Shown: piece by piece, positions 2,766 to 52,100 of the stretch | Position numbering within the stretch: position 1 is the first letter of the stretch | Layout: the number at the start of each line of letters is the position of its first letter | Origin: Escherichia coli | GTDB lineage: Bacteria; Pseudomonadota; Gammaproteobacteria; Enterobacterales; Enterobacteriaceae | NCBI RefSeq assembly: GCF_044324875.1 | Contig: NZ_CP172186.1 | Direction: 5' to 3' (one strand) | DNA length: 64,000 nt | The notes under the pieces: model-generated | Told to the model about the DNA's origin: nothing | Database searches by the model: none | What the model saw: the letters and a program-made list of their open reading frames with translations, nothing else | Program-made: the position numbers and the translations under genes

Positions 2766-2784
2766 ATCCTCACTTTACAACGGG

Positions 2785-3132
2785 TTATATGCGGATTCCA
2801 GCGCGTTCCGTTCGTTTCGGGTGCTTCCAGTTGATACCTTCAAGAAGCATGGATAACTGAGCCGGAGTAAGGTGCACCTTGCCGTCACGGGTGACTGGCC
2901 AGACGAAGCGGCCCCGCTCCAGGCGTTTGGTGAAGAGGCACAGTCCGTCACTGTCAGCCCACAACACTTTTATCTGGTCACCCCGGCGTCCGCGGAAGAT
3001 GAACAGGTGTCCGGAGAACGGGTCATCCTTCAGGACGTTCTGAACTTTTGATGCCAGGCCGTTAAAGCCATTTCGCATATCGGTGATACCTGCAACCAGC
3101 CAGATACGCGAACCTGCAGGGAGAGATATCAT
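2785..3132 (-). CDS. tnpB: IS66-family Orf2 (TnpB)
   Basis: 115 aa, typical IS66 Orf2 size, start/stop coupled to neighbours. Confidence 0.9.
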   Translation of the reverse strand: MISLPAGSRIWLVAGITDMRNGFNGLASKVQNVLKDDPFSGHLFIFRGRRGDQIKVLWADSDGLCLFTKRLERGRFVWPVTRDGKVHLTPAQLSMLLEGINWKHPKRTERAGIRI

Positions 3133-3809: not shown

Positions 3810-4085
3810 TATTTTTGTAGAGCCGGAGGAAACAGACCAGACGGTTTAAATGAGCCGGTTACTTCCCGACAGACGACTCGGTGAAAAAAGTGGTGTGGCT
3901 GGCAATCCAGTCTGCGTCCCGGAAATGGACGATGCCGTTGAAGGACTGGCGAATGGCAATGAGCCGCTTTATTATCGAGTTCGGTGACCGCCTGGACGGT
4001 CACTTCTGAGAAAGGCATTTACACAGAATCTTAAACAGGCTCAAGTGAAGCTAAGCACACAATCAATTCAGGTCTTTGACATCCT

Positions 4086-4152
4086 CCATCTTAACTTCCA
4101 AAGGGTACTCCCGCCGACATAAGGCGGGAGTACCCTTTGGAAGTTAAGATGG
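4086..4152. repeat. Perfect 30-bp inverted repeat with 7-nt loop (hairpin; candidate bidirectional terminator or protein-binding site)
   Basis: CCATCTTAACTTCCAAAGGGTACTCCCGCC-gacataa-GGCGGGAGTACCCTTTGGAAGTTAAGATGG read directly. Confidence 0.9.
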
Positions 4153-4296
4153 AAAACCGACATAAGAACCCTCTGTTATCCTGAAACTCTTATATTTATA
4201 TAACTTGTGAAGGCGTTATGCACACAACCAATCTTCGCAAAGTCGGCGTCTCGTTGACATCCTCCACGCCCTGACGAATGTGGAGGAATGTCAATA

Positions 4297-6570: not shown

Positions 6571-7669
6571 TGTGATTATCCTCGGTATCTGTGGCTTTCA
6601 GGAACAGGCTGACGGTAGTGGCGTCTTTCAGGATGCCGGACGGCAGGTGCCAGCCGGTATCGGATAACACCCATGGGGTACCGCCAAAACCGAACTGGCG
6701 GAAAGCCTGGTTATTGACATCGATGGCAGCACGAGCAGCGGTCAGACACTTTTCATCCGGTGCAGCCGGTGCATCGCCGGTGGGTGCCATACCACCGTCT
6801 GCGGAATACAGCTGATGCCATCCGGTCGCCCGTTTTTGTGCGTCCGGTTCACACAGCAGTGGCGCAGTCCGGTTTGTGCTGGCCTCTCCGCCGATTACGG
6901 AGACCGGATAAATCACCACGCTGAATTCCCGGGCCAGTTGCTTAAGCGCGGGCTCCAGAAGACGGCAGTTGATGCATGCGGGGTCAAGGAAGGCGTAGAG
7001 TGTGCGTTCATGACCAGTGGAGAGATTAATGGTGAACATACCCCGGTCCGCGTTGCGTTTAAGTACAGTGGCCAGATTACGGCGGGCTTCAGCGACCAGA
7101 GTATTTTTGTCTGCTGTTATCGCCGGGGTAGCGGATGTCTCCTGCATTTCCTGTGATGCCGGGTGAACGATTTCATTTTTCGTCTCTGACGGGGCTACTG
7201 ACCGGACAATTTCCTTGTCGATGTGTAATGGTGCTGTTTCTGTTACGGATTCTGTGACAGGTACCCTGAGAGGGGAATCGCTGTCCGGTTTCAGTAAAAT
7301 ATATCCGGCTGTTACCGCTGTCAGAAGTGCCAGCACTAATCCTGCACCGTATATCAGCCCTCTCATGAAGCTGGTTTTCCGGGCAGGAAGTTCTGCATAT
7401 GCCGCGCTCAGACAGCTGTCAATCGCGGAGAGCATTCTGCCGATGTGATGTCCGGGACGTTCAGTATCAACGGTATCAACAAGCAGTGTTTCGGTTATTT
7501 CACGAAAAGGGGTGCTGAAGGACAGGTGCATCAGCCTGTTATTACGGTTAATCAGTGCGCCCAGTTCTGTAACCGGCAGGATGGCAATAACCTCCTGACC
7601 ACCGTCAGGGTACAGGGCGGTCAGGGACAGGTGTTTATTGTTCAGTGTTGCAGTGTAGCGGATGGTCAT
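6551..7669 (-). CDS. trbB: TrbB, DsbC-like thiol:disulfide interchange protein
   Basis: 372 aa, TM/signal anchor, thioredoxin-type CINC (CxxC) motif; coupled between trbA and trbC. Confidence 0.65.
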   Translation of the reverse strand: MTIRYTATLNNKHLSLTALYPDGGQEVIAILPVTELGALINRNNRLMHLSFSTPFREITETLLVDTVDTERPGHHIGRMLSAIDSCLSAAYAELPARKTSFMRGLIYGAGLVLALLTAVTAGYILLKPDSDSPLRVPVTESVTETAPLHIDKEIVRSVAPSETKNEIVHPASQEMQETSATPAITADKNTLVAEARRNLATVLKRNADRGMFTINLSTGHERTLYAFLDPACINCRLLEPALKQLAREFSVVIYPVSVIGGEASTNRTAPLLCEPDAQKRATGWHQLYSADGGMAPTGDAPAAPDEKCLTAARAAIDVNNQAFRQFGFGGTPWVLSDTGWHLPSGILKDATTVSLFLKATDTEDNHNEPASR

Positions 7670-8982
7670 TGTGCTTTTTCCTTGTCGGCGGGATGCTGTT
7701 TTTCGGTGGTTTCGGTGGTTTCGGTGGTTTCGGTGGTTTCGGTGGTTTCGGTGGTTTCGGTGGTTTCACCAGTGTCAGTGTCTTCGTCGTTATCATGGCG
7801 GCGGGGTATCACGTCATCCGTGAGTGACCAGCGGGTCCTGATCTGACGTTTACGATCGCGATCTGGCTGAGGTTCGTCCCATATCAGGCCCAGCCCCAGC
7901 ATGTCCCGTCGAAGCCCTTCAATGGCCTCTTCCACACAGGGTTCCGGGCAGGGGAGGCCGAGACGGCTGGCTTCATTTTCTGCCCGGGCAACGGCCACCA
8001 CGCCGGCCCCTTCGATGAAGCCTTTTGTGGTGTTTGCCCGGTGAAGGGCATAGAAGAGCGTCCGGTCAACGCCCTTGAGCCACAGCCAGTTCGGAGGCGT
8101 CAGGCGCAAATCATGTGCGTAAAGCCAGACCAGACCGCTGCGAACGTAACGGTGCTGCCTGAGCCACTTTTGTGCGCCTTCTGTTTTGATGACCCGGATA
8201 AAGGCGTTTCTGGCCAGTGAATACACCGGCGTGCTGAAACGCCCCTGGTCCCGTTTACTTTTGAGCCTGCAGGAGAGATTGAGGTTGTTCATCAGGGCTA
8301 CCGCTGCTTTCCGGTCACCGAGGAAGAACTGCAGGCCAAAGATGGCAAAGAGCGCTTTTTCATGTGGGGCCATGTCTTTCCAGCTGGTCAGTGGTTGCCC
8401 CAGTTGCGCCATGAAGCACTGGCGTGTGGACGCAACATCGAGCTGCATGTTGCGGATAAGGTTGTTCTGCTCCACAAAGGCTTCGGGGGTTAGTGCGACA
8501 CGGCGCTCGGGACGTTTTTGTCCGTGGAAGAGTCTGTTGTTGTCTCCGTCAGCCAGAACGGGGGCGATCGCCGGTGACAGAGCTGAAAAAATATGGGGCA
8601 GTGTGTGGATATTCAGTGGCCTGCGGGTAAAACGGGGCTGGGCCGGATGGTGAAACCACATCCACAGAAAGCCGAATGTCATGGGAAGCAGAATCAGCCA
8701 GAGGATCCCCACTGTCCGGGACATAACATCCAGCCACTGGCTGAAAGTGATGGTTGCCGCGTTGTTAGCAGTGATGGCCAGCAGGTTGTAACGGGGGACG
8801 GCAAAGTTGTGAAAGGGCCCCCAGTCAATCATGCCCCACAGTGTGTGCAGGATCAGGCAGGAGGCGAAGACGATTTCAGGTAAAAAGCGCCAGATGATAA
8901 TCGCAAAGAGCAGGCATATGGCACCGACGATATACCATATAGCCATTGGATCTTCGGCGGCAGACGTCTGTTGGTAAGACAC
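7666..8982 (-). CDS. trbA: TrbA/DotM(IcmP)-like inner-membrane protein with C-terminal (TET)n acidic repeat
   Basis: 438 aa, several TM segments; position and size fit IncI1 TrbA. Confidence 0.65.
   Translation of the reverse strand: MSYQQTSAAEDPMAIWYIVGAICLLFAIIIWRFLPEIVFASCLILHTLWGMIDWGPFHNFAVPRYNLLAITANNAATITFSQWLDVMSRTVGILWLILLPMTFGFLWMWFHHPAQPRFTRRPLNIHTLPHIFSALSPAIAPVLADGDNNRLFHGQKRPERRVALTPEAFVEQNNLIRNMQLDVASTRQCFMAQLGQPLTSWKDMAPHEKALFAIFGLQFFLGDRKAAVALMNNLNLSCRLKSKRDQGRFSTPVYSLARNAFIRVIKTEGAQKWLRQHRYVRSGLVWLYAHDLRLTPPNWLWLKGVDRTLFYALHRANTTKGFIEGAGVVAVARAENEASRLGLPCPEPCVEEAIEGLRRDMLGLGLIWDEPQPDRDRKRQIRTRWSLTDDVIPRRHDNDEDTDTGETTETTETTETTETTETTETTEKQHPADKEKAQ
7701..7766. repeat. Tandem 9-bp repeat TTTCGGTGG x7 (coding, minus strand ACCGAAACC = Thr-Glu-Thr)
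   Basis: Seven perfect head-to-tail copies inside the 3' end of trbA. Confidence 0.9.
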
Positions 8983-25475: not shown

Positions 25476-26362
25476 TGCCACTGCTGGATAAGCTGCGTAA
25501 GCTGTACGGGGTCGGACCGGTATGCAGTGAACTACATATTGCCCCGTCAACGTATTACCACTGTCAGCAACAGCGACATCATCCTGATAAACGCAGTGCC
25601 CGTGCGCAGCGCGATGACTGGCTGAAGAAAGAGATACTGCGCGTATACGATGGGAATCATCAGGTATACGGTGTGCGTAAAGTCTGGCGTCAGTTGTTAC
25701 GGGAAGGAATCAGGGTAGCCAGATGTACAGTGGCGCGCCTCATGGCGGTTATGGGACTTGCCGGTGTTCTCCGGGGTAAAAAGGTCCGCACTACCGTCAG
25801 CCGGAAAGCCGTTGCCGCAGGCGACCGCGTAAACCGTCAGTTTGTGGCAGAACGTCCTGACCAGTTGTGGGTGGCTGATTTTACTTACGTCAGCACATGG
25901 CAGGGGGTCGTCTATGTGGCGTTCATCATTGATGTGTTTGCCGGATACATCGTGGGGTGGCGGGTCTCATCGTCTATGGAAACGACATTCGTGCTGGATG
26001 CTCTGGAGCAGGCGTTATGGGCCCGTCGACCGTCCGGCACAGTCCATCACAGTGATAAAGGTTCTCAGTATGTATCGCTGGCCTACACACAGCGGCTTAA
26101 GGAAGCCGGATTACTGGCATCAACAGGAAGTACTGGTGACTCGTATGACAACGCGATGGCGGAGAGCATCAATGGCCTTTACAAAGCGGAGGTAATACAC
26201 CGTAAGAGCTGGAAAAACCGGACAGAAGTGGAGCTGGCCACACTCACGTGGGTGGACTGGTATAACAATCGACGATTGCTGGAAAGGCTGGGCCATATCC
26301 CACCGGCAGAAGCAGAAAAAGCTTATTATGCTTCCATCGGAAACGATGATCTGGCAGCCTGA
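25472..26362 (+). CDS. IS3-family transposase OrfB (DDE)
   Basis: 296 aa, rve domain; made as OrfAB fusion by -1 frameshift in this family. Confidence 0.9.
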
Positions 26363-26405
26363 GTTCACAGATAAAACACTCTCCAGGAAACCCGGGGCGG
26401 TTCAA

Positions 26406-28271
26406 AACGTCAGCCACATCACAAAATGGTAGCTGTTCATAGAATCGCGTCTCTTTTGCCTTATTACGATTGACAACGGGTTTATGCCAAGTCAGCTTCT
26501 GCGTTTCTCTATCGTATATCACATGCTTCAACTTTCCCTGTTTTAGCTCGCGGTTGAATGCTTTCCATTGTCGATGCAGTTCAGACTCCAACTTCTTTAG
26601 TTGTGTTTTGATCGGCTTGTGCAAAAATGGGATATTCATTTCAGCCAGCACCGTCGCCTTTTTTCCTTCTGGTACCAGTTCATCAGAAAGATGACGATGA
26701 CGGAGACTGTTATTGAGGTGGAATTCACCTGCCTGAAAGCGTTTTCTAATCTGTCGGTAGAGCCAGAACTCATAGCGCCCAGCATTCAGTCCAATGACTT
26801 CGCCACTCTCATCAAACTCTAGCAAATACGGGCGTAATCGTTTGGGTAATGTTCCCTTTGGGCATTCTGTTAGTGGTCGCTGCGAAAGCGTCTGCTTTTT
26901 ACTGAATACCACCTTAAGCCAGTTCATGGCTTTTACCCACGGACTATCGCTGACTACACTGTTGAGGTCGAGCGACAGAAATAATGGTCGAAGGTGACGC
27001 CGGATTAATCCGGTCATACCATCGACAGCTTGCCACTGTAATGCCAGTTTGCTGACGGGTTTTACGCTCATACGCTGAGCGGTGGTTTGCAGTGTCTCCC
27101 GTGGCATAATCTTCCACGCTCTACGGCGCACTTCGCCAAAGGTGGTAAAGTCTGAGACACTATCATCAACATAAAGAGACAGCAGTCGTCCGATCTTAGG
27201 CGTTTCACGCCGGTGTTTTTCTTGAACGTCAACCAGAAGCTGCTTAGCTACACGGCGACTCTCATCCTCGATCTTTTTCAAATGGAAAAACATGGCTTCC
27301 ACCAAGTTATCGCTGAACTGACGATAACGAACCCATGCATAACACAGCAGATAAAGACGCGCCTGCTCGGGTTTCAGTTGACGCAGATCGTAAACGGTAT
27401 AGAAATTTGCCAGACTCGCGTAGTACAACAGGTTTTGCTGAGAAATATTCAGTGTAGGTAAAATATTGCAGGCTTTATGGTGCAGTGCTTCCAAAATGGT
27501 TCGTTTTTCCCTTTCTTGGGTCATCTGTCGCCATCCGAAGTCTCGGGCATCTTGCCTGAGAATGGCAAGGCGGGAAAGAGTTTCATCGCGTTCAATCAGC
27601 TTGTTCAAATGAGCAATAGTCGCGTCATCGAGTTGTTCCGTTAAAATATGTCCTAATCTTTGTCTTTCATTAGAAAGGACTTTGCTGACTAGCTCTTGAA
27701 GTGTGGTATAGCCGGGTCTGATAATTTTGTTCTCGTTGAGCCAGATAATTAGCTCTGTGGCAACAAATCCGGGAGTGATATCGCGGTGAACAATATGGAC
27801 AGCTTGTTGTTCAACCAATGAAGACAATGCTGAGGACCATGGACGATAATTATACAATTTGAATATTTTTTCTCGCTGAGCATAGCGTTCATATTTAGAG
27901 GGCGATTGAAGTGGAATTGACTCTCCAGGAAAATAACGACTCAGGATAAAGTTGCAGTCGTCCAAGACATCATGCCAATTGAAATGAAAAAACAGACTTT
28001 TAGCTTTAAAGTAAGCAATCTGCAGAATGCAACAAAGCTGCGCATGAAGCCCTTTTCGACTGTTGACTAACGCTAACTCCGATTCATCCAGAACCAAAAA
28101 CTCTAATTGTTGTGCATCATCGAAATCAGGGAGGCCATAGAGAGCTTCTTGTTCAGCATTACTTAATACCGCTAGTCGTTCACTTTTACCAGCGGCTTTA
28201 CCACCACTTACCATCTTGCCCCCCGAAATTAATGTCCGTAAGAGGATCGTTAAGCGGACAGTAATAACCAC
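26406..28271 (-). pseudogene. tnpA: Tn3-family transposase tnpA, N-terminal ~620 codons (interrupted, internal deletion)
   Basis: Tn3-type TnpA N-terminal region; ORF-track frame runs into IS629; combined fragments shorter than a ~1000-aa TnpA. Confidence 0.8.
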
Positions 28272-28362
28272 TTTTATAATCCGCCTATTTATTAGGCTGA
28301 CGTTGTCTCATATAACTGGTACGATATCAATCTCTTTTATCCCCCCTTAAACGTACATTAAT
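28272..28362. promoter_or_regulatory. Probable res site / divergent tnpA-tnpR promoter region
   Basis: Intergenic between divergently oriented tnpA and tnpR, the usual res position in Tn3-family elements; inferred, subsites not mapped. Confidence 0.4.
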
Positions 28363-28938
28363 ATGACTGGAATCAAGATTGGCTATGCTCGTTGCTCCAC
28401 AGACCAACAAGACCTAACTGCCCAGATAGATGCGCTGATAAATCTAGGCATTTCCACTGACAGGATCTATACAGACAAAGGACTGACTGGTTCAAACCGA
28501 CAGAGGCCGGGCCTAGAACAGGCGCTTGCAGCGGTTCGAGAGGGAGATACGCTAGTTGTTCCAAAACTAGATCGTTTAGCCCGTTCAGTACCTGATGCAA
28601 GAGGTATTGCTGATATCCTACAAGCTCGAGGAGCGAAACTCGCTCTAGGGGACAGTATCTATGATCCAACAGACCCGATGGGGAAAATGTTCTTCAATAT
28701 TCTTGCTACTTTTGCAGAGTTTGAAGGAGACCTTATTCGACTACGAACTAAAGAGGGGATGGCTGTTGCCCGTTCAAAGGGAAAATTGAAAGGAAAACAG
28801 CCTAAATTATCTGAAAAACAACAAAAAGAACTATGCCGTATGCGTGATACTGGCCAGTACTCTATCAGCGATCTAGCGGAACTATTTACCGTCTCGCGTG
28901 CAACGGTTTATCGAACACTTTCACGAGGACAAAAATGA
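28363..28938 (+). CDS. tnpR: Serine recombinase (resolvase) TnpR
   Basis: 191 aa, GYARCSTDQQ catalytic serine motif, C-terminal HTH. Confidence 0.9.
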   Translation: MTGIKIGYARCSTDQQDLTAQIDALINLGISTDRIYTDKGLTGSNRQRPGLEQALAAVREGDTLVVPKLDRLARSVPDARGIADILQARGAKLALGDSIYDPTDPMGKMFFNILATFAEFEGDLIRLRTKEGMAVARSKGKLKGKQPKLSEKQQKELCRMRDTGQYSISDLAELFTVSRATVYRTLSRGQK

Positions 28939-29149
28939 CCGATTTAACTACACAGCAACATCTAGTAAAAATTGTCCATGATTATGCCTGCCCTCAAAAG
29001 GGTCATGGACAGTCCATCAAAGGTTCAAATGGATTACATCTGCATTCAATACCCAGATTACTTCCGCTTTGCTAAATGGATAGAACGGTTGGCGTAGGGT
29101 ATTGTTGATGGTGTAATTAAAGTTCCTAAAGATCATTAAAATATCAGAT

Positions 29150-29188
29150 CGGAAATTTAGGCGGTTCCGGCGTAGAACCCAGAACCCC
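29150..29188. repeat. Internal third copy of the Tn3-family terminal IR (variant terminus)
   Basis: CGGAAATTTAGGCGGTTCCGGCGTAGAACCCAGAACCCC, same orientation as the right-end IR at 31234-31267. Confidence 0.8.
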
Positions 29189-29197
29189 TTATCCGAA

Positions 29198-30061
29198 TTA
29201 TTGTTCAGTTAACTTCATTTCGACAAGTAAAGGTAAATGATCTGAGACAGATGCATATGGCTTACTTTCAGGGGTCGCTCTATCTGACGGTTTAGGAATA
29301 TATACATCTTTAATGTCCCATTTTTGAGCATTTGATGTAAGTATATAATCAATTTTCCTGTCTGGATTCCATGATGGTGCCGTGTACTTCAATTCCTTAT
29401 CAGTGTCATTGAACCATGCTGTTAAATCCAAGTACTCTGTTGATTGAGGTGGTAAATTAAGATCACCCACTATAATTGGAAGTGCATTTTTAAACTGCCA
29501 AGAAGAGAATTTTGTTTGAAGAGTTCTTACTTGCTCTGCTCGTAATGGCTGCGTAGTGAAGTCCAAATGAGTAGTTACTAACATAACAGGCGCAGGATAA
29601 TTAGGGACATCAACTTCTACAGCACAGGCCGCTCTTTGCTCCGCACCTTTGATGTTAGGTAGTTCCATCCTTTTACTCAATTTCAAATCATACTTAGACA
29701 GTACTGCTGTACCATATTCCCCACCATCATGATCTATAGCCTTGCAGAAGTAATAATTCATTCCCAACTTATTAGCTATATACTCTGCTTGATTGACTGG
29801 GTTAGAACCCTCTTTACTAAAGTTCTTACCAGAACGCCTAGTCATGTTATCAACTTCTTGCAGTCCAATAATATCAACATTCATTTTACGAATTGCTTCT
29901 ACAATGGCATCAGTACTCCCCATTCTAGAGGCCATTATGTTATATGACCCAACACGAATACTATCGGTATCTGCTGGACCATCCATGAGGCGATCAGAAG
30001 CTAAAGTTGAAGAGGAAAGAACTATAAACCCTATAACCGCAGCAATGCTTGTTAATTTCAT
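29198..30061 (-). CDS. Secreted endonuclease/exonuclease/phosphatase (EEP, DNase I-like fold) family protein
   Basis: 287 aa, N-terminal signal peptide, SYNIM...GLQEV and C-terminal SDHLP motifs; AT-rich; cargo inside transposon. Confidence 0.7.
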   Translation of the reverse strand: MKLTSIAAVIGFIVLSSSTLASDRLMDGPADTDSIRVGSYNIMASRMGSTDAIVEAIRKMNVDIIGLQEVDNMTRRSGKNFSKEGSNPVNQAEYIANKLGMNYYFCKAIDHDGGEYGTAVLSKYDLKLSKRMELPNIKGAEQRAACAVEVDVPNYPAPVMLVTTHLDFTTQPLRAEQVRTLQTKFSSWQFKNALPIIVGDLNLPPQSTEYLDLTAWFNDTDKELKYTAPSWNPDRKIDYILTSNAQKWDIKDVYIPKPSDRATPESKPYASVSDHLPLLVEMKLTEQ

Positions 30062-30062
30062 T

Positions 30063-30390
30063 TGGATTTGCCCCTATATTTCCAGATACCTGTTATCACT
30101 TAACCCATTACTGGCTTGCTGCCGTAGATATTCCCGTGGCGAGCGATAACCCAGTGCACTATGCGGATGCCATTCGTTATAATGCTCGAACGCCTCTGCA
30201 AGGTTCTTTGCTGCCGTTAACCCGTCTGGTTTGGGCATGACACTGATGTAGTCACGCTTTATCGTTTTCACGAAGCTCTCTGCTATGCCGTTACTCTCCG
30301 GACTCCGCACCGCCGTGCTCTTCGGTTCAAGCCCCAACATCCGGGCAAACTGCCGTGTTTCATTAGCCCGGTAGCATGAACCATTATCCG
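30063..30390 (-). mobile_element. IS2 remnant (3' end of orfB plus terminal IR)
   Basis: IS2 end TGGATTTGCCCCTATATTTCCAGA; translation matches IS2 OrfB C-terminus; junction with IS1 approximate. Confidence 0.8.
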
Positions 30391-30937
30391 TCATCCATAT
30401 CACCACGTCAAAGGGTGACAGCAGGCTCATAAGACGCCCCAGCGTCGCCATCGTGCGTTCACAGAATACGTGCGCAACAACCGTCTTCCGGAGCCTGTCA
30501 TACGCGTAAAACAGCCAGCGCTGGCGCGATTTAGCCCCGACATAGCCCCACTGTTCGTCCATTTCCGCGCAGACGATGACGTCACTGCCCGGCTGTATGC
30601 GCGAGGTTACCGACTGCGGCCTGAGTTTTTTAAGTGACGTAAAATCGTGTTGAGGCCAACGCCCATAATGCGGGCAGTTGCCCGGCATCCAACGCCATTC
30701 ATGGCCATATCAATGATTTTCTGGTGCGTACCGGGTTGAGAAGCGGTGTAAGTGAACTGCAGTTGCCATGTTTTACGGCAGTGAGAGCAGAGATAGCGCT
30801 GATGTCCGGCGGTGCTTTTGCCGTTACGCACCACCCCGTCAGTAGCTGAACAGGAGGGACAGCTGATAGAAACAGAAGCCACTGGAGCACCTCAAAAACA
30901 CCATCATACACTAAATCAGTAAGTTGGCAGCATCACC
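30390..30937 (-). mobile_element. IS1 remnant (IR, insA, 5' two-thirds of insB) fused to the IS2 remnant
   Basis: IS1 terminus GGTGATGCTGCCAACTTA at 30920-30937; InsB sequence ends at WMTD then continues as IS2 OrfB. Confidence 0.8.
30607..30882 (-). CDS. insA: IS1 InsA
   Basis: 91 aa [30 protein letters not shown]... Confidence 0.85.
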
Positions 30938-31267
30938 CGCGAATTATTAAATAAATACCATGGGCTCTCTCGTATTAGCCAAAAATTAAGGCAAAAAGGC
31001 TCGAGACCTTAGTAATAGAACAAGAGCTTGAAGATACCGATGTCAATTGGTTTGAGACGTGCCTTAAAGCAAAAGAAAAAAGTTTGGCAGCAGCTTCCCC
31101 CAAAATCAGAGTTAGAAAACAAAGATGATTCGTGACCTTCTATATTAAGGTCACTCGTTATCAATGATATTAGAGTGCATAAGCAAATAGAAAGAACATA
31201 CCAGTCAATTACTTATACTTTCTTTGACTCAATGTCGGAAATTTCGGCGGTTCCGGCGTAGAACCCC

Positions 31268-43385: not shown

Positions 43386-44142
43386 GTGTTTTCAGGCGGC
43401 GGACGCGATCGCCAGTGATGAGTTTTTGCCCGTTGCCGGTAACCGTCTGCATCTGCTCTGTGACATCTGGACGTGTGATCATGCCCTGACGCCACAGAAG
43501 GGCGTAAAGCATCATGCCCCGGTAATCACGGGTCAGGCGCTTCTGATTAGCTTCCAGTGTGAGATCTGCGTTGAGGCGCCCTTCCTGCCATCCCTGACGT
43601 AAGGCGTTTTCCCATAGTCTGCGTTGTGCCCGGTCTTCCGGCACAACCCGGCCTTCAGTGCCTGGTGTGGCGGTGGTTGAGAGTCCTTTCAGCAGCCAGT
43701 CACGCCATCCAGGAGGATTACTGACAAAGCGTTCCGGGCGGAGGATAGTCCAGACACGGGAGGCTGTTCTTATCTGGTCCGGTCTGATGTGTGCAACATC
43801 CTGCGCTTCATCGATAACAGGAGGCAGCCAGCCTTCCTTGCTGATGAGAGGCCGGAAATCATACAGGGCATTCAGGGTACTTTCCCGGGCATTCAGTGCC
43901 TGAATCAGTTCCCATGAGCGCTGTGCTTTTCCACCACGGAATCCCAGCGTTCTGCCGGCATCCGTGAGCATCTGACGACGGGTATCTGAAATACCATCAT
44001 CCTGGTTGCCGGAGGGCGTCAGCCATGCACGGATATCCGGGGGCGGTGCGTTTTCTGTCATGACGGCAGAAGAACGGTGATGCTGTCCGGCACAGCCTGT
44101 AAGCAGGAGAGCAGACAGCAGGAGACACAGGTGTGTTTTCAT
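43306..44142 (-). CDS. traI: TraI lipoprotein (DotC-like)
   Basis: Lipobox LLLTGCAG; 278 aa. Confidence 0.65.
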   Translation of the reverse strand: MKTHLCLLLSALLLTGCAGQHHRSSAVMTENAPPPDIRAWLTPSGNQDDGISDTRRQMLTDAGRTLGFRGGKAQRSWELIQALNARESTLNALYDFRPLISKEGWLPPVIDEAQDVAHIRPDQIRTASRVWTILRPERFVSNPPGWRDWLLKGLSTTATPGTEGRVVPEDRAQRRLWENALRQGWQEGRLNADLTLEANQKRLTRDYRGMMLYALLWRQGMITRPDVTEQMQTVTGNGQKLITGDRVRRLKTHAEFTLQKSRWRPLVSTEGEKNDITR

Positions 44143-44591
44143 TTTTTCTCCGGCGTCATAAAAGACAGATGTAAACGCCCGGCTGACTGCGAGAGTGTTG
44201 CCCGCCAGGCAGTCTGGGCTTCAGTGAGACGAAGGACATCAGCAAAGGTCATGTCGCGGACGTGCAGTGAGACGGGTAAGGGGAGACGGACGCCGCTGTA
44301 GCTGAACTGCTGGCCGCGCAGACGGGCCAGTTCGTTGAGCAATTCCAGGGCATCGCCTTCCCAGTCAAAGGAAACACGGTCGCTGTGAGCCTTCAGACTG
44401 CCGCCGGACTGACGCTCCGGAAGGGCTGCAGAGTAAATTCCCTGCCCCCATAGCTGATACTGCGCATGCCGGGCGACGGCGACATCAGAGGCAGCACCAT
44501 ACTTTCTGGTCGGAGCTGTATTATCCGGGGGGAGATGGCAGCCGTTCAGGCAGAGTACGGCGAGACATCCCGCAGGTATCATACGGTTCAT
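44139..44591 (-). CDS. traH: TraH lipoprotein (DotD-like)
   Basis: Lipobox LCLNGC; 150 aa; ATGA coupling to traI. Confidence 0.65.
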   Translation of the reverse strand: MNRMIPAGCLAVLCLNGCHLPPDNTAPTRKYGAASDVAVARHAQYQLWGQGIYSAALPERQSGGSLKAHSDRVSFDWEGDALELLNELARLRGQQFSYSGVRLPLPVSLHVRDMTFADVLRLTEAQTAWRATLSQSAGRLHLSFMTPEKK

Positions 44592-44949
44592 GGTGTATTT
44601 TTCCTGAGCAGTGAAAGAAGAAAGCGTTGTGGGGAGGATTTACTGGTTCGTGTTTTTGCTGAATGGCTGGAACACCTCAGAGGGTGACAGTGCTACCCGG
44701 ATACAAATATCGTTTGCTATCACGATATTACATTCGTTAGCTGTCGGATCCCGGAACGGTTCCACCATAAAGGCTTTGTTTTCGATATGCGTTTTATTTT
44801 TGTTAAACATGCATTTCCTCATGCGAAAATGATATGTCAGATAACAGCCAGATCAGAGGCAGCACTACAGGTCTGGCTGTGTCGTTTGATGGTCGGAAAA
44901 CGCGAGGATGCAGGTCTGGATACCCCGGTCAGTACCGGGGCAGAGATGA

Positions 44950-46152
44950 TCAGAATGTGAACTGCAGTTGTGCAACGGCACCGTAGTTGTTGTCTGTGCC
45001 TGCTATACCCGCCACATCAATATGGACGACATCAAATGGTGAGATACCCAGCCCGGCGGTGAACGCACTGCCATCATTGCTGGCCAGATTCTGGCGGTAG
45101 CCTGCACGTAACTGTGCCCATTTCCAGGCATTAAATTCAGCACCAATGGCAGCAAACTGACGTTTACTGTCTGATGTGAAGCCACTGGCCGGGGTCAGGT
45201 CAACATCCAGTGCTGTAGTGAACATGTCGTTGTGCCAGGAGACACCGGCAGTCACCTGCGGGCGGATCCTGAAAGTTTCAGTGACACCGTTCACTTCTTT
45301 TGTCTCAATACTGCGGGGGAGCAGGTTCTGTGCGACCAGACCCAGTGTCCAGTTGTCATCCAGGTCCATGCTGGCCCCGATATCAGCGTTAATGCCGTTT
45401 CTGGTGTTGTGGTAACGGTCGCCTTTGAAAGCGCTGCTGTCGTAATTTTTAACCAGCACGTTGTAGCTAAACAGGTCAACACGCTGGAATTTTGGTGTGA
45501 AGCCCAGAGACCACTTTTGTCCGGCCGTTTCCAGTTCAGTAGCCAGAGCAATACCCACATCGGTGACCAGTGCGGCACGGGCAAAAGCCTGAGAGGTCAG
45601 TCTGTCTTTATCCACATCCTGACCGTTACTGTTTGCAATGCTTTCCAGATAGTTCAGGTCGGCATCACTGACTTTACCGTCGACACTGACCGTACCGTAG
45701 CTTTTCAGCATCAGAGCGGCAGCGAGGGTGTCACCGGGAAGAGTCGCCACAGCAGATGTTCCCACCTGTGCGTCAGCATGCGTGTGACGGAAGTCCTGAA
45801 GTCGCGTCTTCAGACGTGCAGCAGTCTGCGACACGTTGCTCTGACTGTCGATGGCACGATCAAAGGCTTTCCAGTCATCACTGATTTTGTCTGCGTTGTC
45901 ACTGATATTACCCGGATCGGACAATTGCCCACCAACGGACGGAATCAGAAGACTGAAGTCATCTTCCGGACCGGCTTTTGTCAGCAGGGCCGGGTTTGCC
46001 AGAGGTGCCACACCGTAGTGAGAGGAGGCTACCCCGGTTCCCCCCATTGCATCATTGCGGGCTTCAAAATATGAAGTTGCGGCTGTTGAATTAAAGGAAA
46101 ATAAAACAGCAGATGCGATGAGAGTTCGGGTAATGTGCATATTCATCATCAT
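44950..46152 (-). CDS. Outer-membrane beta-barrel protein (traG/traF position)
   Basis: Signal peptide after internal Met, alternating-hydrophobic strands, C-terminal aromatic QLQFTF. Confidence 0.55.
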   Translation of the reverse strand: MMMNMHITRTLIASAVLFSFNSTAATSYFEARNDAMGGTGVASSHYGVAPLANPALLTKAGPEDDFSLLIPSVGGQLSDPGNISDNADKISDDWKAFDRAIDSQSNVSQTAARLKTRLQDFRHTHADAQVGTSAVATLPGDTLAAALMLKSYGTVSVDGKVSDADLNYLESIANSNGQDVDKDRLTSQAFARAALVTDVGIALATELETAGQKWSLGFTPKFQRVDLFSYNVLVKNYDSSAFKGDRYHNTRNGINADIGASMDLDDNWTLGLVAQNLLPRSIETKEVNGVTETFRIRPQVTAGVSWHNDMFTTALDVDLTPASGFTSDSKRQFAAIGAEFNAWKWAQLRAGYRQNLASNDGSAFTAGLGISPFDVVHIDVAGIAGTDNNYGAVAQLQFTF

Positions 46153-46241
46153 TTCAGTTTCCTGGTTTGAGGTGTTTTGGGTACAGCAACGGTATGACAC
46201 GACTGTGCCATTAAAAATTTACTGGTTTTTTCTCTGCGTTA

Positions 46242-47063
46242 TTACCAGGGTAATAACGGTATACTGAATAACTCAGCAGGTAATATTTTTCCTGTCATCA
46301 GATATTCTGCCTGTGCCGGACGAAGCGTTACGGTCCGGACGGATGTCTTTGCATATAAATTGCGGGCAGTGTGAAACCAGTTTTCTTTTTCCTTATTCAT
46401 TCTTACAGGTGATAAAGAAAGTACAGGATAAATGATGGCTTTATTAATTTCTTTTTTCTTGCGGAACAGTACACCGCAATATTCCTGTGAATGAACACCG
46501 GCAAAAGGAAAACTGTGCCAGATAATAATATCCACATTATCGCTGGCTGAAATAAGCTGGCAGAACGCATCCTGTGTTGCTGGCCACTCACCGGCACGGC
46601 TTAAAGGATAACGTACCCTGCCGTTCAGCCATTCCGGGTTGAGATAAAACCAGTCAGCCAGAGCAGTCAGAATCTCTCCTGTCAGATAATCTGCGAGTTT
46701 GTCCGGGTCACGGAAAACGGCAGGACGGATATTCCAGGGAGCCAGTAACGTTGTCATCGTTGTTACGCAGACATCATGTGCCTGCATGATGTGTTCTGTC
46801 CGGCAGATAAGACGGTGAACGATGTTTTCAGCCGGGAGAAACATTTCAGTTAATGCATCTTCGACCAGGATACGCGTCAGGTCGGATACAGAAAGGGAGA
46901 GTTGCTCGCTCATTATTCCGAGTGCTTCTCTGACGCCCTGCGGATAACGGATCTGCAGGGGAGTGGACTGCAACTGGCGGTTATTGAGCAGAGCTTCACT
47001 AATCCGGGCCCTGTCAATGGAGAGCATCATGCGGGCAGCAATGCCTGTGCTGTTGGGTTTCAT
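46242..47063 (-). CDS. Hypothetical protein (tra-region, traE/traF position)
   Basis: 273-aa ORF; no recognised domain. Confidence 0.4.
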   Translation of the reverse strand: MKPNSTGIAARMMLSIDRARISEALLNNRQLQSTPLQIRYPQGVREALGIMSEQLSLSVSDLTRILVEDALTEMFLPAENIVHRLICRTEHIMQAHDVCVTTMTTLLAPWNIRPAVFRDPDKLADYLTGEILTALADWFYLNPEWLNGRVRYPLSRAGEWPATQDAFCQLISASDNVDIIIWHSFPFAGVHSQEYCGVLFRKKKEINKAIIYPVLSLSPVRMNKEKENWFHTARNLYAKTSVRTVTLRPAQAEYLMTGKILPAELFSIPLLPW

Positions 47064-47322
47064 TTCACCTCCGTGCGGTTCATATGTTAAGTCTAAAGAG
47101 CGTGTTTACTGAACGGAAACGAGTTATTTCGATCGTTATGATCGAGTGTGTTTCAAGAGTGCTTTTAACTCTGTTTTAAGCGTGAATGAAAAGGATTCGG
47201 ACAGGACGTGATTTAGTATGCCGCTGGTCTGGCATTATGCTGCAGAGCAGACGGAGTCAGGAGATTGAAAGTATTTCGTTATATAATCTTTTCCTTTTCG
47301 GGATGAAATCAACGAGGTTCGT

Positions 47323-47643
47323 ATGAAAATTAAACAGCATAAAGAAAAACTGGAGATTATAAGGGATATTATTCGAGAGACGCTGTTGGGTAATGCTGCT
47401 CTTATTGTTCTGGCAGCCATGGTTCCGGTTGTACTGGTGAAACCATGGGATTCGATGACATTTATTTTTATGGGGGCCGTGTGTGTTTCTTTTGCAGTCA
47501 TTCTGTTTTGGCTGGTTTATATAGTTTGTTTGTATATAGGAACGCTTGTAAAGAATATTTTTATAAGGATTTTTGCTTTTTCTATTTGGGCCCTTTCTGC
47601 TGAGGGGGCAATTATTTATAACATGATAAAGATATTATCATAG
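47323..47643 (+). CDS. Hypothetical small membrane protein
   Basis: 106 aa, 2-3 TM helices, AT-rich, opposite strand to backbone. Confidence 0.35.
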   Translation: MKIKQHKEKLEIIRDIIRETLLGNAALIVLAAMVPVVLVKPWDSMTFIFMGAVCVSFAVILFWLVYIVCLYIGTLVKNIFIRIFAFSIWALSAEGAIIYNMIKILS

Positions 47644-47734
47644 AAAAGTTGTTTATATATTGGCTCTATGTAAAAAGAATGGTACCTCTGCCAGAGTTCC
47701 CGGCGTTATTTTTATGTGTTGGGGCCATGAATGT

Positions 47735-48055
47735 TTATTTGGCATCCCTTATCTCGCCCATTAGCAGGCGGATACGCAGCCAGGTGTCATGATCCAGAAC
47801 AGGTGATGGTGTTACCATGCAAGCACAGTGCCCGATGGCGAGCGTATCAAGGAAGCGTTTTGCATCGCTGGCACTTTCATATTCACCAGTATGGATCAAC
47901 ATCCACCTTTGCCCCAACGCTGATTCGGTGTGAATTGGTTGCGAGAATGCGATTGTGTAAACGTCTTCAATTGTAACGATACGATTATTATCCGCAGTGG
48001 CTGCACGGGAGGATAAGTGTTTCATAAAGGGTCTCATAGCGTTAATTTTGAACAA
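47735..48055 (-). CDS. Hypothetical protein downstream of rci
   Basis: 106-aa ORF; no recognised domain. Confidence 0.35.
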   Translation of the reverse strand: MFKINAMRPFMKHLSSRAATADNNRIVTIEDVYTIAFSQPIHTESALGQRWMLIHTGEYESASDAKRFLDTLAIGHCACMVTPSPVLDHDTWLRIRLLMGEIRDAK

Positions 48056-48066
48056 AAATTATTTGT

Positions 48067-49236
48067 TCAGGAGGAGGATATGAAAATACTGTTCGCTTTT
48101 GTCATGAACTGGCTGTTTGTTAACGGACAAATCATGACCCGTTCATCAATGTTTGCGGGTAGCTCGCCTGGTGTGGGGACGCGTTCACCCCGCTGAGCAG
48201 CCTGGGCCAGTGCGCGCAGCAACAATACGCTGGCGTGAGATATTGCCAGTTCCCGGGTTTCAGCACGGCTTTCAAGGTCGAAATCGTGCAGTGTCACAAT
48301 GAACACTCCGTTTCTGTTTCTGACAGTTGCAGGGTAGGGAACAAAATAAGGGGAAATTTTGCTGGTCTGTTTACGCCTTGCATCGAGTTTACTGACCAGG
48401 TGATATGCCCGGAGATGTGTGTACCGTTTCAACATGTTCAGGGAGCGGTGACCGGAAATGGCTGCAATCTCCATAACGTTCAGTGTGCCGAGCTCGAACA
48501 GACGGCTGATGGCCTCATGGCGGAGATCGTGAAAATGCAGATTTTCTATTTTCAGATCCAGAAGAGCGGTACGCCAGGCGCTTTTGAAACCGGACGAGGT
48601 GTAATTGAACACATTGCCGTTTATCTGTTGTGGCAGAATTTGCAGGTAGTTACGTGCTTTCCGGGAGAGTGGTACGTCGCGTGGTGAGCCATTTTTCGTT
48701 TCAGGAAGATGCGCCACGCCGTGCTGCAAATCGAGGTGTTCCCAGCGTAATGAGAGAATTTCTCCCTGGCGCATTGCTGTTTCCAGAGCCAGATGGAAGA
48801 TAACGTAGAGCTGCGGATTTTTGTCCCTGAAATAGCGGGAAAGGCGGCGTTCTTCACCAGAAGTCAGTCGGCGGTCGCGGCCATTACTGATTTTCGGTTT
48901 TCGGACCAGTTCAACAGGATTCATACGGCATGTTCCCCATTCCACACGGGCGATATTGAATAATGATGATAAAAGGGCAAGTTCAAGACGGACGGTATTT
49001 CCGGTGATTTGACGCCCTGTTCGTGGGTTAATTTGAGCTAAACGCTGATCCCGGTAACCGGCGATATCAATGGTAGTGATTTCATCCATATAGCGCTCGG
49101 CCATAGGGTGACGTTTAATCACATTGACGCGATAAAACTCCTGCAGATGACCTTTTTTATGGACGGAAACGGTTTTCAGGTATTTGTCCAGCGCCCGGTT
49201 GAGAGTCATTTTGCGAATTTTGATTTTTCGAAACAT
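48067..49236 (-). CDS. rci: Shufflon-specific tyrosine recombinase Rci
   Basis: Tyrosine-recombinase C-terminus (HDLRHEAIS...[14 protein letters not shown]); adjacent to 19-bp repeats; start taken at MFRKIK since the ORF-track start overlaps a repeat. Confidence 0.85.
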
Positions 49237-49298
49237 ATCTGCCTTCCACGATAAAAACGGGGAAGGTAGGAATAGTGAAACGGAAATGCAATATCGCC

Positions 49299-51117
49299 GT
49301 GCCAATCCGGTTCGTGGATTAGGGTATCAGGTAGCACTGTTCTGACAGGAAAAATCGCAAATGGAGAACGACTACCTTTGCCGTCTGGTTTTTCTGCCAG
49401 CCAGTGTACCTGGAGCGTCAGCAATGCTGAAAACCCGCATGGCTGGAAGCCAAATTACTTCGCAGGTTCTGTTGCGACATATGATTCGAACAGGATTGTG
49501 AAGTGTGGTTACTACGATGAATACAATTTTCACGGCGGTACAAACAGGAACGACCTGACGGGGAAATGTAGTTACATTGTGGTTTGCCAGTAAATCACTT
49601 TGTCATTGGCAAATGGCATGTACAGTTATTTTTCCAATGATGTGTTCTGTCGTATCGCAATAGCCATACCAGGCATTATTGTTTACAGGTATTGAACGGA
49701 CAAGCCAGATAAAGCCAATTCCAGAGCTGCATTCTGCACCACCCCCGATCACCTTCTTACCCATTGGGCAGGTGGCAGTAGCACCAGGCCAGCGGAGTTT
49801 TGATGCTGTTACTTTGACGATTTCAATATCGCCTTTTCCTGCATTTTTCCACGAACCGGATTGGCACGGAGGCCAGTGCCAATCCGGTATCTGGACAACG
49901 ACAAAAATGAACTTCACTACCAGTACATACAATATCGGGAAAAATACTCGTAATCTGAGCATTGGCGTACATGCGTACTGCTCGTGGACATACCTTAATG
50001 GCTCGCCTTTTGGTGGTTTTCAGCAGATATACGCCGACCAAAACAAGGTTTGGTATGTGAATAATTATGCGTGGGGAAATTATGAGTCCGGTGGCACAAT
50101 TACAGTGACATGCCTCAACCTTCCTGGTGCCGGAATCTAACCAAAAGGGCAACAGTAAGCATCGACGTGCTCTTCATCAATACCATCTCCGATGCCGTAC
50201 ATTCTTGTACCTGTCATGACGTACCCGGCAGGGCACTGAATCGGCTTGTAATAAATAGAACCTCCACTTCTGCCACCGATAAAATGTGCGGAGGTCGCTT
50301 CATACCATTTACAGGCAGAATAGTTCACTTTATTGCCTCCAAGCCACAAACCGGATTGGCACTGGCCTCCGTGCCAATCCGGTGTGTGGGTTGGCTTTGA
50401 ATCCTACCCTGTGGGAAGCCCTATCCCGTGGCCATCTGCCACTCCTCCACAAGGCTATCTGTTGATGAACGGCCAGTCGTTTTCCTGTTCCCGGTATCCT
50501 CAGCTTGCCCGTGCTTATCCTGGCTGTAAATTGCCCGATCTGCGCGGTGTTTTTATCCGTGGCTGGGATAACGGGAAGGGACTTGATGGTGATCGGAACA
50601 GACAACTCCTGAGTTATCAGGCCGATCAATCAGGCGTCTATCACGAACGTGGCGGATGGCTGAAAGGGCATCATAGTGGTATGCCATACTGGGCACAGGG
50701 GAGTACCACAGAAATGCGTCCCAAAAATATTGCATTCAACTACATTGTTAAAGCCAGCTAGGGACTCACATCTGATAGGCATACACAGAGAAAACACCGT
50801 TACCACAGGCGTAATTTTGTGTTGGTCTGGAGATGATTTGATATGACGCTCCCACTGGCACGGCAAATGAAATAAATGCTGTCTTTCCGTAGGAGGGGTT
50901 ATTGCTGGCATTCATACCAATGAAAGCGCCGTTCACATAGCCCTGAAGATTTGATGTGTTGGCGCAATCACCGCCACCGGCACCATTTCCACCGGAAGCG
51001 TACACAAACAAAGTTCCTCTGCCGTTATTTCTCCCGTTAAATGTTCCCCGGTGAGAACCCAGATTGCTGTAACTTCCGTCAGGTGCACCAATCGTTCGCC
51101 ACACACCGGATTGGCAC
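49299..51117. repeat. PilV shufflon: six 19-bp repeats GTGCCAATCCGGTNNGTGG bounding three invertible segments with convergent alternative pilV 3' exons
   Basis: Repeats at 49299-49317(+), 49849-49867(-), 49876-49894(+), 50345-50363(-), 50371-50389(+), 51099-51117(-); overlapping ORFs on both strands. Confidence 0.85.
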
Positions 51118-52100
51118 GAAAGTATTGCCCCTTTACTGTCGCGGCCTACAAGTCCGTCCGGTGAGCAGGAAGTACCTGCGGTGGCTGTTTTATCCAGCTG
51201 TAAATACTCACCCGTGGAAAGACGCCCCTCAGACCGGACAGTTCCACCACTGACTTTTCCTCCTTTGAGCTCTCCTTCGGTTGTGATCCCTTTGTTGTTA
51301 ACAGCACGTATCCATTGGCTGTCCGTCATGGTGAAACCGCCTCCGTGCGTCGTGTTCATCCACCCCTTGTTGTTTCTGGTGATAAGCCAGCCGTCTTCGC
51401 TGGTTATATCGCCTTTCACCGTGGCTTTCTGACCATTGAGGTTACCGGCGTTATTGATGTCATTTCCGCCCATGTTGATAGCTGTGTGCATCTGGTTCAG
51501 CTCTGATCTCCCCGGGACCTGGAAACGATACAACCTGTCGCTTTCCTGCAGATCATCACCCGTCATGACGACGGCAATGTGACCTGCCGAACAGGTGAGT
51601 CCGTAATCCCCCGGTTTGTCTGTCCAGGCGCCGAATGCGCCGGTTGCTGTTCCGTTTTTACCAATATAACCACCCAGCCCGGGAAGCTGTCCTGCCACAC
51701 TGCGCAGACCATCTTCTTTGATATTCTGCCCCCCTGTTGAGCAGGTCAGGGCTTCAAGACGTCCTGTAGTCTGGTTACGGCGGATACCCGTGATATAACT
51801 CTGCCCAAACGGAGAATGATTAAATCCCTGTTTCAGGTATCCCTTGCGAATCAAATCATCGGCTGTAAAGTTTGCCGGAAGGCTGCCGTTGTGCAGAGTG
51901 GCATTGTTATCGGCAATGTAATTTCTGGCTGCGGTATTGTAGGCATCTGCATGAGAAGCAGCACTCTGGTAAAGCTGTTCATTCAGCCAGTTTTCTATTT
52001 CGGAATAAATCAGCGGCGTGGCGATACCAATCACTATCAGTCCCGCCAGTATTTCAAGCAGAATAAAACCTTTGTCGTCATCGTGTCTGAACTTTTTCAC
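50766..52100 (-). CDS. pilV: PilV minor pilin/adhesin (constant N-terminus plus currently attached shufflon exon)
   Basis: Prepilin-like N-terminus GFILLEILAGLIVIG; ORF crosses the repeat at 51099-51117. Confidence 0.85.
   Translation of the reverse strand: MKKFRHDDDKGFILLEILAGLIVIGIATPLIYSEIENWLNEQLYQSAASHADAYNTAARNYIADNNATLHNGSLPANFTADDLIRKGYLKQGFNHSPFGQSYITGIRRNQTTGRLEALTCSTGGQNIKEDGLRSVAGQLPGLGGYIGKNGTATGAFGAWTDKPGDYGLTCSAGHIAVVMTGDDLQESDRLYRFQVPGRSELNQMHTAINMGGNDINNAGNLNGQKATVKGDITSEDGWLITRNNKGWMNTTHGGGFTMTDSQWIRAVNNKGITTEGELKGGKVSGGTVRSEGRLSTGEYLQLDKTATAGTSCSPDGLVGRDSKGAILSCQSGVWRTIGAPDGSYSNLGSHRGTFNGRNNGRGTLFVYASGGNGAGGGDCANTSNLQGYVNGAFIGMNASNNPSYGKTAFISFAVPVGASYQIISRPTQNYACGNGVFSVYAYQM

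Follow-up and report, generated by a model that had tools for sequence, protein, structure and literature searches.

What does a plasmid of the I-complex gain from the genes that lie between traH and rci, the gene for the shufflon recombinase? We examined this question for positions 44950-48055 of a 64,000-nucleotide stretch of Escherichia coli DNA (contig NZ_CP172186.1; the whole stretch is called the window below), in which a preliminary description had placed four open reading frames (ORFs), all of which were found again in the ORF list. The reading that we favour, and to which we give a probability of roughly 0.55, is that the block is a non-essential accessory part of the I-complex (IncK2/Z) transfer region. 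It would consist of a traE-traF module, with TraF as a ligand barrel and TraE as a regulator, and of a variable spacer.

Two genes of the block are homologues of R64 traE and traF

The region 44500-48500 is 100% identical to the E. coli plasmid pLH50-c-A (NZ_CP100501.1), which is typed as having an IncK2/Z replicon, a MOBP relaxase and an MPF_I mating system (MPF, mating pair formation), and 53 plasmids are at least 99% identical over the same region. Gene calls were taken from the annotation of NZ_CP100501.1 and CP063741.1, together with a mechanical ORF list of the window. The four coding sequences are likewise annotated in NZ_CP100501.1, as they are in over 130 further plasmids. Two of them carry the argument:

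44950-46152, minus strand: traF, 400 amino acids (aa) from its ATG (ORF list, Pfam, R64 homology)
46242-47063, minus strand: traE, 273 aa, annotated as 'hypothetical' or 'TraE' (R64 homology)

The traF reading frame can be extended to an upstream GTG, which gives 416 aa.

In the IncI1 plasmid R64 (NC_005014) the order is traH, traG (194 aa), traF (400 aa) and traE (274 aa), with rci 150 bp further on. The 400-aa protein of the window is 74% identical to R64 TraF across 400/400 residues; for the 273-aa protein and R64 TraE the identity is 57%, across 273/274 residues. Because identity at these levels extends over the full length, the two genes are true homologues of their R64 namesakes, and the earlier view that the block matches traE, traF and traG by position only does not hold for them. 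The other two ORFs have no R64 counterpart. When the window was compared with R64 by blastn, homology was observed at 44092-44622 (traH), 44949-47073 (traF and traE) and 48380-49218 (rci), and none at 44623-44948 or 47074-48379. The IncI1 plasmids R64, ColIb-P9 and pESBL have the same order rci, traE, traF, traH on one strand, with TraE and TraF of equal lengths. Unlike R64, the window lacks traG, has traE and rci set apart by about 1 kb of additional sequence that holds two ORFs, and has a different rci 3′ end.

R64 TraG matches His_Phos_1 (histidine phosphatase), and its gene lies between traF and traH. When the entire window was searched by tblastn with R64 TraG, no match had an E value lower than 0.37, and by this comparison traG is missing from the window. 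The preliminary description had set the ORFs against traE, traF and traG by position, and neither of the small ORFs corresponds to traG. We ruled them out both as traG and as a relic of it, since TraG has no match there by tblastn and the spacer in which they lie is without R64 homology. On the favoured reading traG, a lipopolysaccharide-phosphatase-like gene of IncI1, would simply be absent.

In IncI1 plasmids (R64, pESBL) these genes are dispensable for transfer. In a transposon sequencing screen of the IncI1 plasmid pESBL, the probabilities of being non-essential for transfer were 0.93 for TraE, 1.00 for TraF and 0.79 for TraG, and pilR-V were needed on solid medium (PMC4288162). Guglielmini et al. 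describe the function of TraE(MPF_I) as 'still unknown' (PMC4027160).

TraF is predicted to be a FadL-type outer-membrane barrel

TraF matches the Pfam family TraF_2 (PF13729) with an E value of 1.8e-68 and 231.1 bits, against a cut-off of 25, over model positions 1-264 of 264. NCBIfam gave sub-threshold matches to PorV/PorQ (E 2e-11), to PorV of the type IX secretion system and to BamG, and some TraF homologues match PorP_SprF or OMP_b-brl in Pfam. The sole PHROGs match in the block was to an unnamed family, again for TraF. By inspection, the protein begins with a signal-peptide-like N-terminus, MMMNMHITRTLIASAVLFSFNSTAA, and ends in the aromatic stretch QLQFTF with a terminal Phe, as had been reported from the preliminary description.

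An AlphaFold2 model of TraF, built from 23 homologues that are 61-92% identical to the query, contains 14 long antiparallel strands, with a mean predicted local distance difference test score (pLDDT) of 66 and a predicted template modelling score (pTM) of 0.63. A two-helix insertion at residues 83-121 separates strands 1 and 2. The conserved N-terminal segment EARNDAMGGTG...NPALLT was taken as a hatch. This predicted hatch (residues 26-66), with a column identity of 0.86, ranks with the best-conserved parts of the family, and the predicted surface loops vary most (0.59-0.73). The ratio of non-synonymous to synonymous substitution rates (dN/dS) is 0.09-0.19 for traF. A profile comparison with E. 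coli FadL (sequence from NC_000913) gave one 27-column match at E 0.04, which placed 53-NPALLT of TraF on NPALIT, a stretch that we take to be the NPA motif of the FadL hatch.

TraF is therefore modelled as a FadL-type 14-stranded β-barrel, an assignment that is well supported at the level of the fold and agrees with the FadL/OmpP1-type barrel first proposed. Membership of the FadL family by sequence is not claimed, as the 27-column match was the only one and no family hidden Markov model was matched. Several observations weigh against a FadL-like activity. The model is of low confidence in the hatch region (pLDDT 44-50), no FadL-defining family matched TraF in Pfam or NCBIfam, and the profile match to FadL is weak. 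Moreover PorV and BamG, which are FadL-fold subunits of larger outer-membrane machines and not channels, score nearly as well. A search of PDB sequences with TraF returned no chain at E ≤ 10.

The predicted 14-stranded fold is common to TraF and FadL/OmpP1. TraF differs from FadL, TodX and OmpP1 in its two-helix insertion, and in that its gene is borne by plasmids or by integrative and conjugative elements (ICEs) and is paired with a gene for a predicted helix-turn-helix (HTH) protein. It differs from PorV of type IX secretion and from BamG of the Bacteroidota BAM complex in scoring far under the family cut-offs, so that PorV/PorQ (NF033709) membership fails at 44 bits against a curated cut-off of 90, and in its hosts, which are enterobacteria. 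A literature search found no paper connecting IncI TraF with FadL.

On the favoured reading TraF would carry a Sec signal peptide and then be inserted in the outer membrane as a 14-stranded FadL-type barrel, presumably plugged by the conserved N-terminal segment. Judged by the examples of FadL and TodX, it would most likely bind a hydrophobic ligand or let one pass, by way of a lateral opening in the wall of the barrel. TraF would then be an accessory of the donor-cell envelope, outside the core of the Dot/Icm-like secretion machine.

The traE-traF pair is found in plasmids and in chromosomal elements

TraE was found by tblastn in 1920 plasmid records and TraF in 1936. A profile scan with TraF over one genome per species gave 226 relatives. 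The genome context was studied by fetching 80 of the 226 loci and searching them by tblastn with the proteins of the plasmid, and two groups were distinguished. In group A, TraF is at least 46% identical, and at 13 loci it is directly preceded on its upstream side by a TraE homologue (23-37% identical). Three of the 13 also have TraH, TraI and TraJ and resemble MPF_I plasmids; three have pil genes followed by rci-traE-traF, without TraH/I/J; and seven have no pil or rci gene in the fetched flank (up to 10 kb). One of the pil-rci-traE-traF loci is a Salmonella chromosomal element with neighbouring genes for TraG-D_C, DtrJ-like, RAQPRD and DUF2859 domains, which we take to be an MPF_G ICE of the PAPI-1/ICEclc type. 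In Brenneria the pair adjoins genes for a tyrosine recombinase (integrase), a TraI_2 relaxase, a DUF2786 protein and a Dam-like protein.

Group B consists of a chromosomal TraF paralogue of about 435 aa, 36-41% identical and without TraE. Two of its loci (in Salmonella diarizonae and Cedecea davisae) were inspected, and the paralogue lies there in an apparent core-gene context with no TraE or transfer genes nearby. From the N-terminal sequences of their products we take the genes on one side to be lexA, dinF and zur, and those on the other side to be dusA and dnaB. The paralogue (L054, 10007-11317; L086, 10001-11308; about 58 other loci) has the same EARNDAMGGTG motif, and its hosts are Enterobacteriaceae including Kluyvera, Buttiauxella, Enterobacter, Kosakonia, Cedecea and Salmonella arizonae/diarizonae.

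The dN/dS is 0.18-0.20 for traE, and that of rci (about 0.1) is similar to those of traF and traE. Since the pair is found in both plasmids and ICEs and has a low dN/dS, traE-traF is a mobile module of conjugative elements that is conserved and under selection, and it is often, but not always, located beside type IVb pilus genes.

The proximity to pilus genes bears on a different view of TraF, in which it is a PorV/BamG-like subunit docked on a large outer-membrane machine, either PilN, the secretin of the type IVb thin pilus, or the DotC/DotD/DotH-like core. Such a subunit would matter only under special conditions, for example when mating takes place in liquid or in the gut, or with particular recipients. 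The PorV/PorQ similarity points in this direction, as does the position of traE-traF directly downstream of pil-rci in I-complex plasmids, an order that is kept in the Salmonella ICE with its other type of type IV secretion system (T4SS) and in Brenneria and Pectobacterium loci without TraH/I/J. The IncM plasmid pCTX-M3, which is without traEFG, is also in its favour. However, the seven pairs with no pil or rci gene in the fetched flank argue against a pilus partner, the chromosomal paralogues, presumably between zur and dusA, stand in a core context with no secretion genes nearby, and TraE and TraF were non-essential in the same pESBL screen in which pilR-V were required on solid medium. We therefore regard docking as rather unlikely, although it deserves serious attention, and prefer the ligand barrel.

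TraE is predicted to be a helix-turn-helix protein

The close family of TraE is narrow. It has 33 clusters, in which identity is never below 50%, and all of them come from E. coli and Salmonella. An exhaustive profile search over 1.8 billion representatives gave 106 proteins at E ≤ 1e-3, many of which are 280-390 aa long and aligned to TraE positions of about 30-175. Searches of Pfam, NCBIfam, PHROGs and PADLOC gave nothing significant for TraE or for either of the small ORFs, which agrees with the earlier statement that these three have no recognisable domains.

TraE is a predicted cytoplasmic protein. In its AlphaFold model (pLDDT 70.7) residues 1-39 are disordered and are followed by two low-confidence helices (44-55 and 59-74), by a confident helical domain at about 81-146 that is XRE-type and has the five helices of the Cro/C1 fold, and by an α/β C-terminal domain at about 164-265. 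The segment LQIRYPQGVREALGIMSEQLSLSVSDLTRILVEDAL (about 34-74) is ribbon-helix-helix (RHH)-like in appearance; it matches RHH_5 at E 0.02 with 15 bits, against a cut-off of 26, and no strand is present in the monomer model. One remote TraE homologue matches HTH_3. A search of PDB sequences gave one chance-level match only, and a Foldseek search against viral structures gave one unnamed match, which was uninformative for the C-terminal domain. Compared with the XRE/Cro-C1 repressors, TraE has an additional RHH-like N-terminal segment and a 100-aa C-terminal domain, and it lacks a sequence match to HTH_3 or HTH_31. Judged from the model, TraE is best regarded as an HTH-fold protein that probably binds DNA. 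On the favoured reading it would most likely bind DNA and control the traE-traF module.

Three results count against this role. No Pfam HTH or RHH family, HTH_3 and HTH_31 included, matched TraE above threshold. In the block no operator-like repeats or promoters were found above chance. Finally, remote TraE relatives are also found as solitary chromosomal genes, and four of them (P0102, P0127, P0137 and P0140; loci L014 and L015) have an N-terminal SMEK, DUF4062, TIR or TIR/SEFIR domain ahead of the HTH-like core, which hints at something beyond a simple repressor. On metagenome contigs the gene for the TIR form is part of a small gene cluster that is conserved.

These fusions are one reason to consider traE-traF as a conflict module, for exclusion or for anti-phage or anti-defence functions, in which TraE would be a sensor-regulator and TraF a surface protein that alters adsorption or entry. 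The variability of the TraF surface loops, the annotation of FadL as the phage T2 receptor, and the Brenneria pair beside Dam methylase, DUF2786 and HEPN-like genes are consistent with such a role. Yet PADLOC had no match for any of the five proteins, TraE itself is without an effector domain, the fused relatives match weakly (E 1e-4 to 2e-7) and over the HTH-like core only, and TraF is overall under strong purifying, not diversifying, selection. A conflict module is thus very improbable, and we retain TraE as the likely regulator of the pair.

The interval between traE and rci is variable

The remaining features of the block and of its flanks are as follows:

44139-44591, minus strand: traH, DotD-family lipoprotein (annotation); flanks the block, next to traI and traJ
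44623-44949, no strand: traF-traH spacer in place of R64 traG (no homology to R64)
44640-44810, minus strand: 56-aa hypothetical ORF (annotated), in the traF-traH spacer
47064-47322, no strand: divergent intergenic region between traE and the artA-like gene (blastn boundaries)
47323-47643, plus strand: artA-like gene, 106 aa, small membrane protein (hydropathy, ArtA similarity)
47735-48025, minus strand: 96-aa ORF (RefSeq annotation and homologue clusters); the 106-aa version starts from TTG at 48055
48067-49236, minus strand: rci, shufflon recombinase (annotation), then pilV and the pil operon

All annotated genes from traJ to rci are on the minus strand, except for one plus-strand hypothetical ORF. 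The left part of the intergenic region 47064-47322, to about 47221, is conserved across I-complex plasmids by blastn. A promoter and terminator scan of the block gave counts at the level of shuffled sequence, and no operon boundaries were drawn. An Rfam scan of 44000-49500 gave nothing at E ≤ 1.

The traE-rci interval takes several forms in I-complex plasmids. It is 150 bp in R64, contains only an artA-like gene in L009, and contains an artA-like gene and the small ORF in the window and in L008. A further form, with a 181-aa ORF and the small ORF, is seen in another IncK2/Z plasmid, L005, where the 181-aa ORF (2741-3286, minus strand) has no Pfam domain and takes the place of the artA-like gene. 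In pO26-Vir (NC_012487.1, positions 2972-3445; IncI-gamma/K1), traE is followed almost directly by pilV, and all that is left of rci is 171 bp that match its 3′ part; from this arrangement, rci and the shufflon appear to have been deleted there. The spacer of the window would accordingly be a lineage-variable segment of about 1 kb, holding a gene for a putative ArtA-family inner-membrane protein that runs against tra and pil, and the 96-aa ORF downstream of rci.

The variation extends into rci itself. The 3′-most 300 or so nucleotides of the gene (48067-48379 of the window) have no DNA homology to R64 rci. Two related plasmids (L008, 3627-3726; L007, 3358-3444) carry a duplicate of about 100 bp of the rci 3′ end just past the small ORF, as though the end of rci had received an inserted segment, and in L009, which is without the small ORF, rci abuts the artA-like region. 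The duplicate and the arrangement in L009 therefore suggest that the 96-aa ORF arrived with the replacement of the rci 3′ end.

Rci recombination was also considered as the origin of the variable spacer. A search of the block for repeats and sfx sites found no sfx site and no meaningful repeat. The idea was dropped because all six exact copies of the sfx core (GTGCCAATCCGGT), which are in alternating orientation, lie outside the block, at 49299-51117. The PilV ORF is at 50766-52100 in the window, whereas in an otherwise identical record pilV is annotated at the equivalent of 49521-50768; the arrangement or size of the shufflon therefore differs from that of the matching record.

Further observations concern the surroundings. 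The 56-aa ORF (44640-44810) lies in a lower-GC spacer and has no domain match; in pO26-Vir (L006) and L009 the traF-traH gap is only about 100 bp, which leaves no space for it. Between the traU-like ATPase gene and traT (25505-31230 of the window), recombinase-family and endonuclease/exonuclease/phosphatase-family genes are annotated in the matching record, together with about 3 kb without a listed gene, and the segment resembles an insertion into the tra operon. A MazE/MazF toxin-antitoxin pair directly follows the relaxase gene and is followed by two IS3-family transposase genes (window 480-1072 and 3548-7712).

The plus-strand ORF belongs to the ArtA family

The product of the plus-strand ORF is strongly hydrophobic, with a grand average of hydropathy (GRAVY) of 1.21 and 3-4 hydrophobic segments, and the ORF runs antisense to the tra and pil genes. 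It was found by tblastn in 175 plasmids, with identity below 60% in 42 of them. Other IncK2/Z plasmids have a 48-53% identical copy in the same place, divergent from traE, and one plasmid carries a frameshifted copy. In this comparison the first 26 residues are invariant but for one D/N change, and the remainder is about 35% identical. The invariant N-terminus, KEKLEIIR[DN]IIRETLLGNAA, is predicted to be cytoplasmic. The first 26 codons contain eight synonymous changes and one replacement change (dN/dS 0.02, against 0.41-0.57 for the rest and 0.33-0.41 for the whole ORF), and selection therefore acts on this ORF at the protein level.

A tblastn search of 7.3 Gb gave a match at E 4e-5 to a coding sequence labelled 'toxin ArtA' on an IncF plasmid, which lies between traQ and trbA on the opposite strand. 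In a pairwise comparison the two proteins are 35% identical (E 2e-13) and share the motif KEKLEIIRNIIRESLLGNAA. The ArtA used here was the annotated 86-aa protein of an IncF plasmid and not that of F itself. Three ArtA-like ORFs on the plus strand (L100, 3501-3761; L099, 3498-3821; L101, 3492-3809) have the common motif K.KLEIIRNIIR..LLGN. One of the three is antisense within an F-type tra operon and carries the 'toxin ArtA' label; another, of 107 aa, has no annotation and runs antisense among the VirB genes of an MPF_T plasmid; and a 105-aa copy was found on a small non-mobilizable plasmid. The likeness to ArtA thus comprises a length of about 105 aa, several hydrophobic segments, the N-terminal motif KEKLEIIRNIIRE[ST]LLGNAA and an antisense position in a transfer gene cluster. 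The differences are the other plasmid family and T4SS type, the highly diverged membrane part, and the location of the window gene between traE and rci and not in a pilus-assembly operon. By sequence similarity, the plus-strand ORF is an ArtA-family gene.

In the passages of PMC5102898 and PMC4027160 that cite Kathir and Ippen-Ihler (1991), F artA figures only as an ORF on the anti-tra strand for which there are insertion mutants. On F-type plasmids the name 'toxin ArtA' apparently arose by confusion with the ArtAB toxin. The artA insertion mutants of Kathir and Ippen-Ihler are said to have transferred normally.

The 96-aa ORF downstream of rci

The minus-strand ORF next to rci had been listed as 106 aa. 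The frame is present, and its length is 96 aa, as the RefSeq annotation and all 11 homologue clusters start at the ATG at 48025 and the TTG at 48055 is unsupported. This ATG lies 41 nt past the rci stop codon. The homologues form 11 clusters, all from E. coli, of 93-99 aa and 58-96% identity, and the ORF was found in 201 plasmid records, confined almost entirely to E. coli I-complex plasmids. Invariant blocks (ADNNRI, PIH and CMV.PSPVL.HDTW) are situated in the terminal parts and the middle is variable. No domain was found in Pfam, NCBIfam, PHROGs or PADLOC, and no transmembrane segment.

The 96-aa ORF probably encodes a real small soluble protein, although the evidence is weak. It may instead be a conserved open frame, and not a functional gene, in sequence brought in when the rci 3′ end was replaced. 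The ORF is barely constrained, with a dN/dS of 0.73-0.83 overall and 1.2-1.4 in the middle third, and it has no domain, transmembrane segment or relative outside the I-complex plasmids; the segment is flanked by the rci 3′ duplicate of about 100 bp in related plasmids and is missing from L009. On the other hand, all 11 clusters, down to 58% identity, keep an uninterrupted frame with unchanged start and stop, the invariant blocks are retained, and dN/dS falls to 0.24-0.33 over the first 20 codons (0.4-0.7 at the C-terminus). A non-functional frame therefore seems the less likely of the two, without being far-fetched, and a genuine small protein is preferred.

Discussion

The content of the block is already catalogued, as dispensable genes, in public annotation and in the literature. 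The additions made here are at the level of annotation. They are a predicted FadL-like fold for TraF, a predicted XRE-type fold in TraE, the presence of traE-traF in putative ICEs with another T4SS, a core-genome TraF paralogue, and the relationship of the membrane ORF to ArtA.

A bolder proposal, which we regard as speculative and distinctly unlikely, is that traE-traF is an autonomous, horizontally mobile module of Dot/Icm-like (MPF_I) plasmids and MPF_G ICEs that combines a FadL-type outer-membrane barrel with an HTH sensor-regulator, the core of which is elsewhere also fused to TIR, SEFIR or SMEK effectors, and that serves an undescribed envelope function of conjugative elements. It may assist the type IVb mating pilus, or sense or import a hydrophobic cue that tunes transfer in nature, neither of which would be visible in laboratory matings. 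To this hidden layer of accessory functions the ArtA-like antisense gene, which occurs in three T4SS types, could also belong.

The gene naming can be corrected. The window has no traG, and 'toxin ArtA' on F-type plasmids is apparently a misnomer. In E. coli and Salmonella, the I-complex plasmids (IncI1, IncK, IncB/O and IncZ) are major carriers of resistance genes of the extended-spectrum β-lactamase (ESBL) and AmpC types. About 1,900 plasmids have TraE and TraF, which are under purifying selection yet dispensable in laboratory transfer assays, and the two proteins must therefore be of benefit under some other condition. The predicted barrel of TraF, the repressor-like fold predicted for TraE, and the joint movement of the pair between plasmids and chromosomal elements provide concrete hypotheses for experiments on what that benefit may be.

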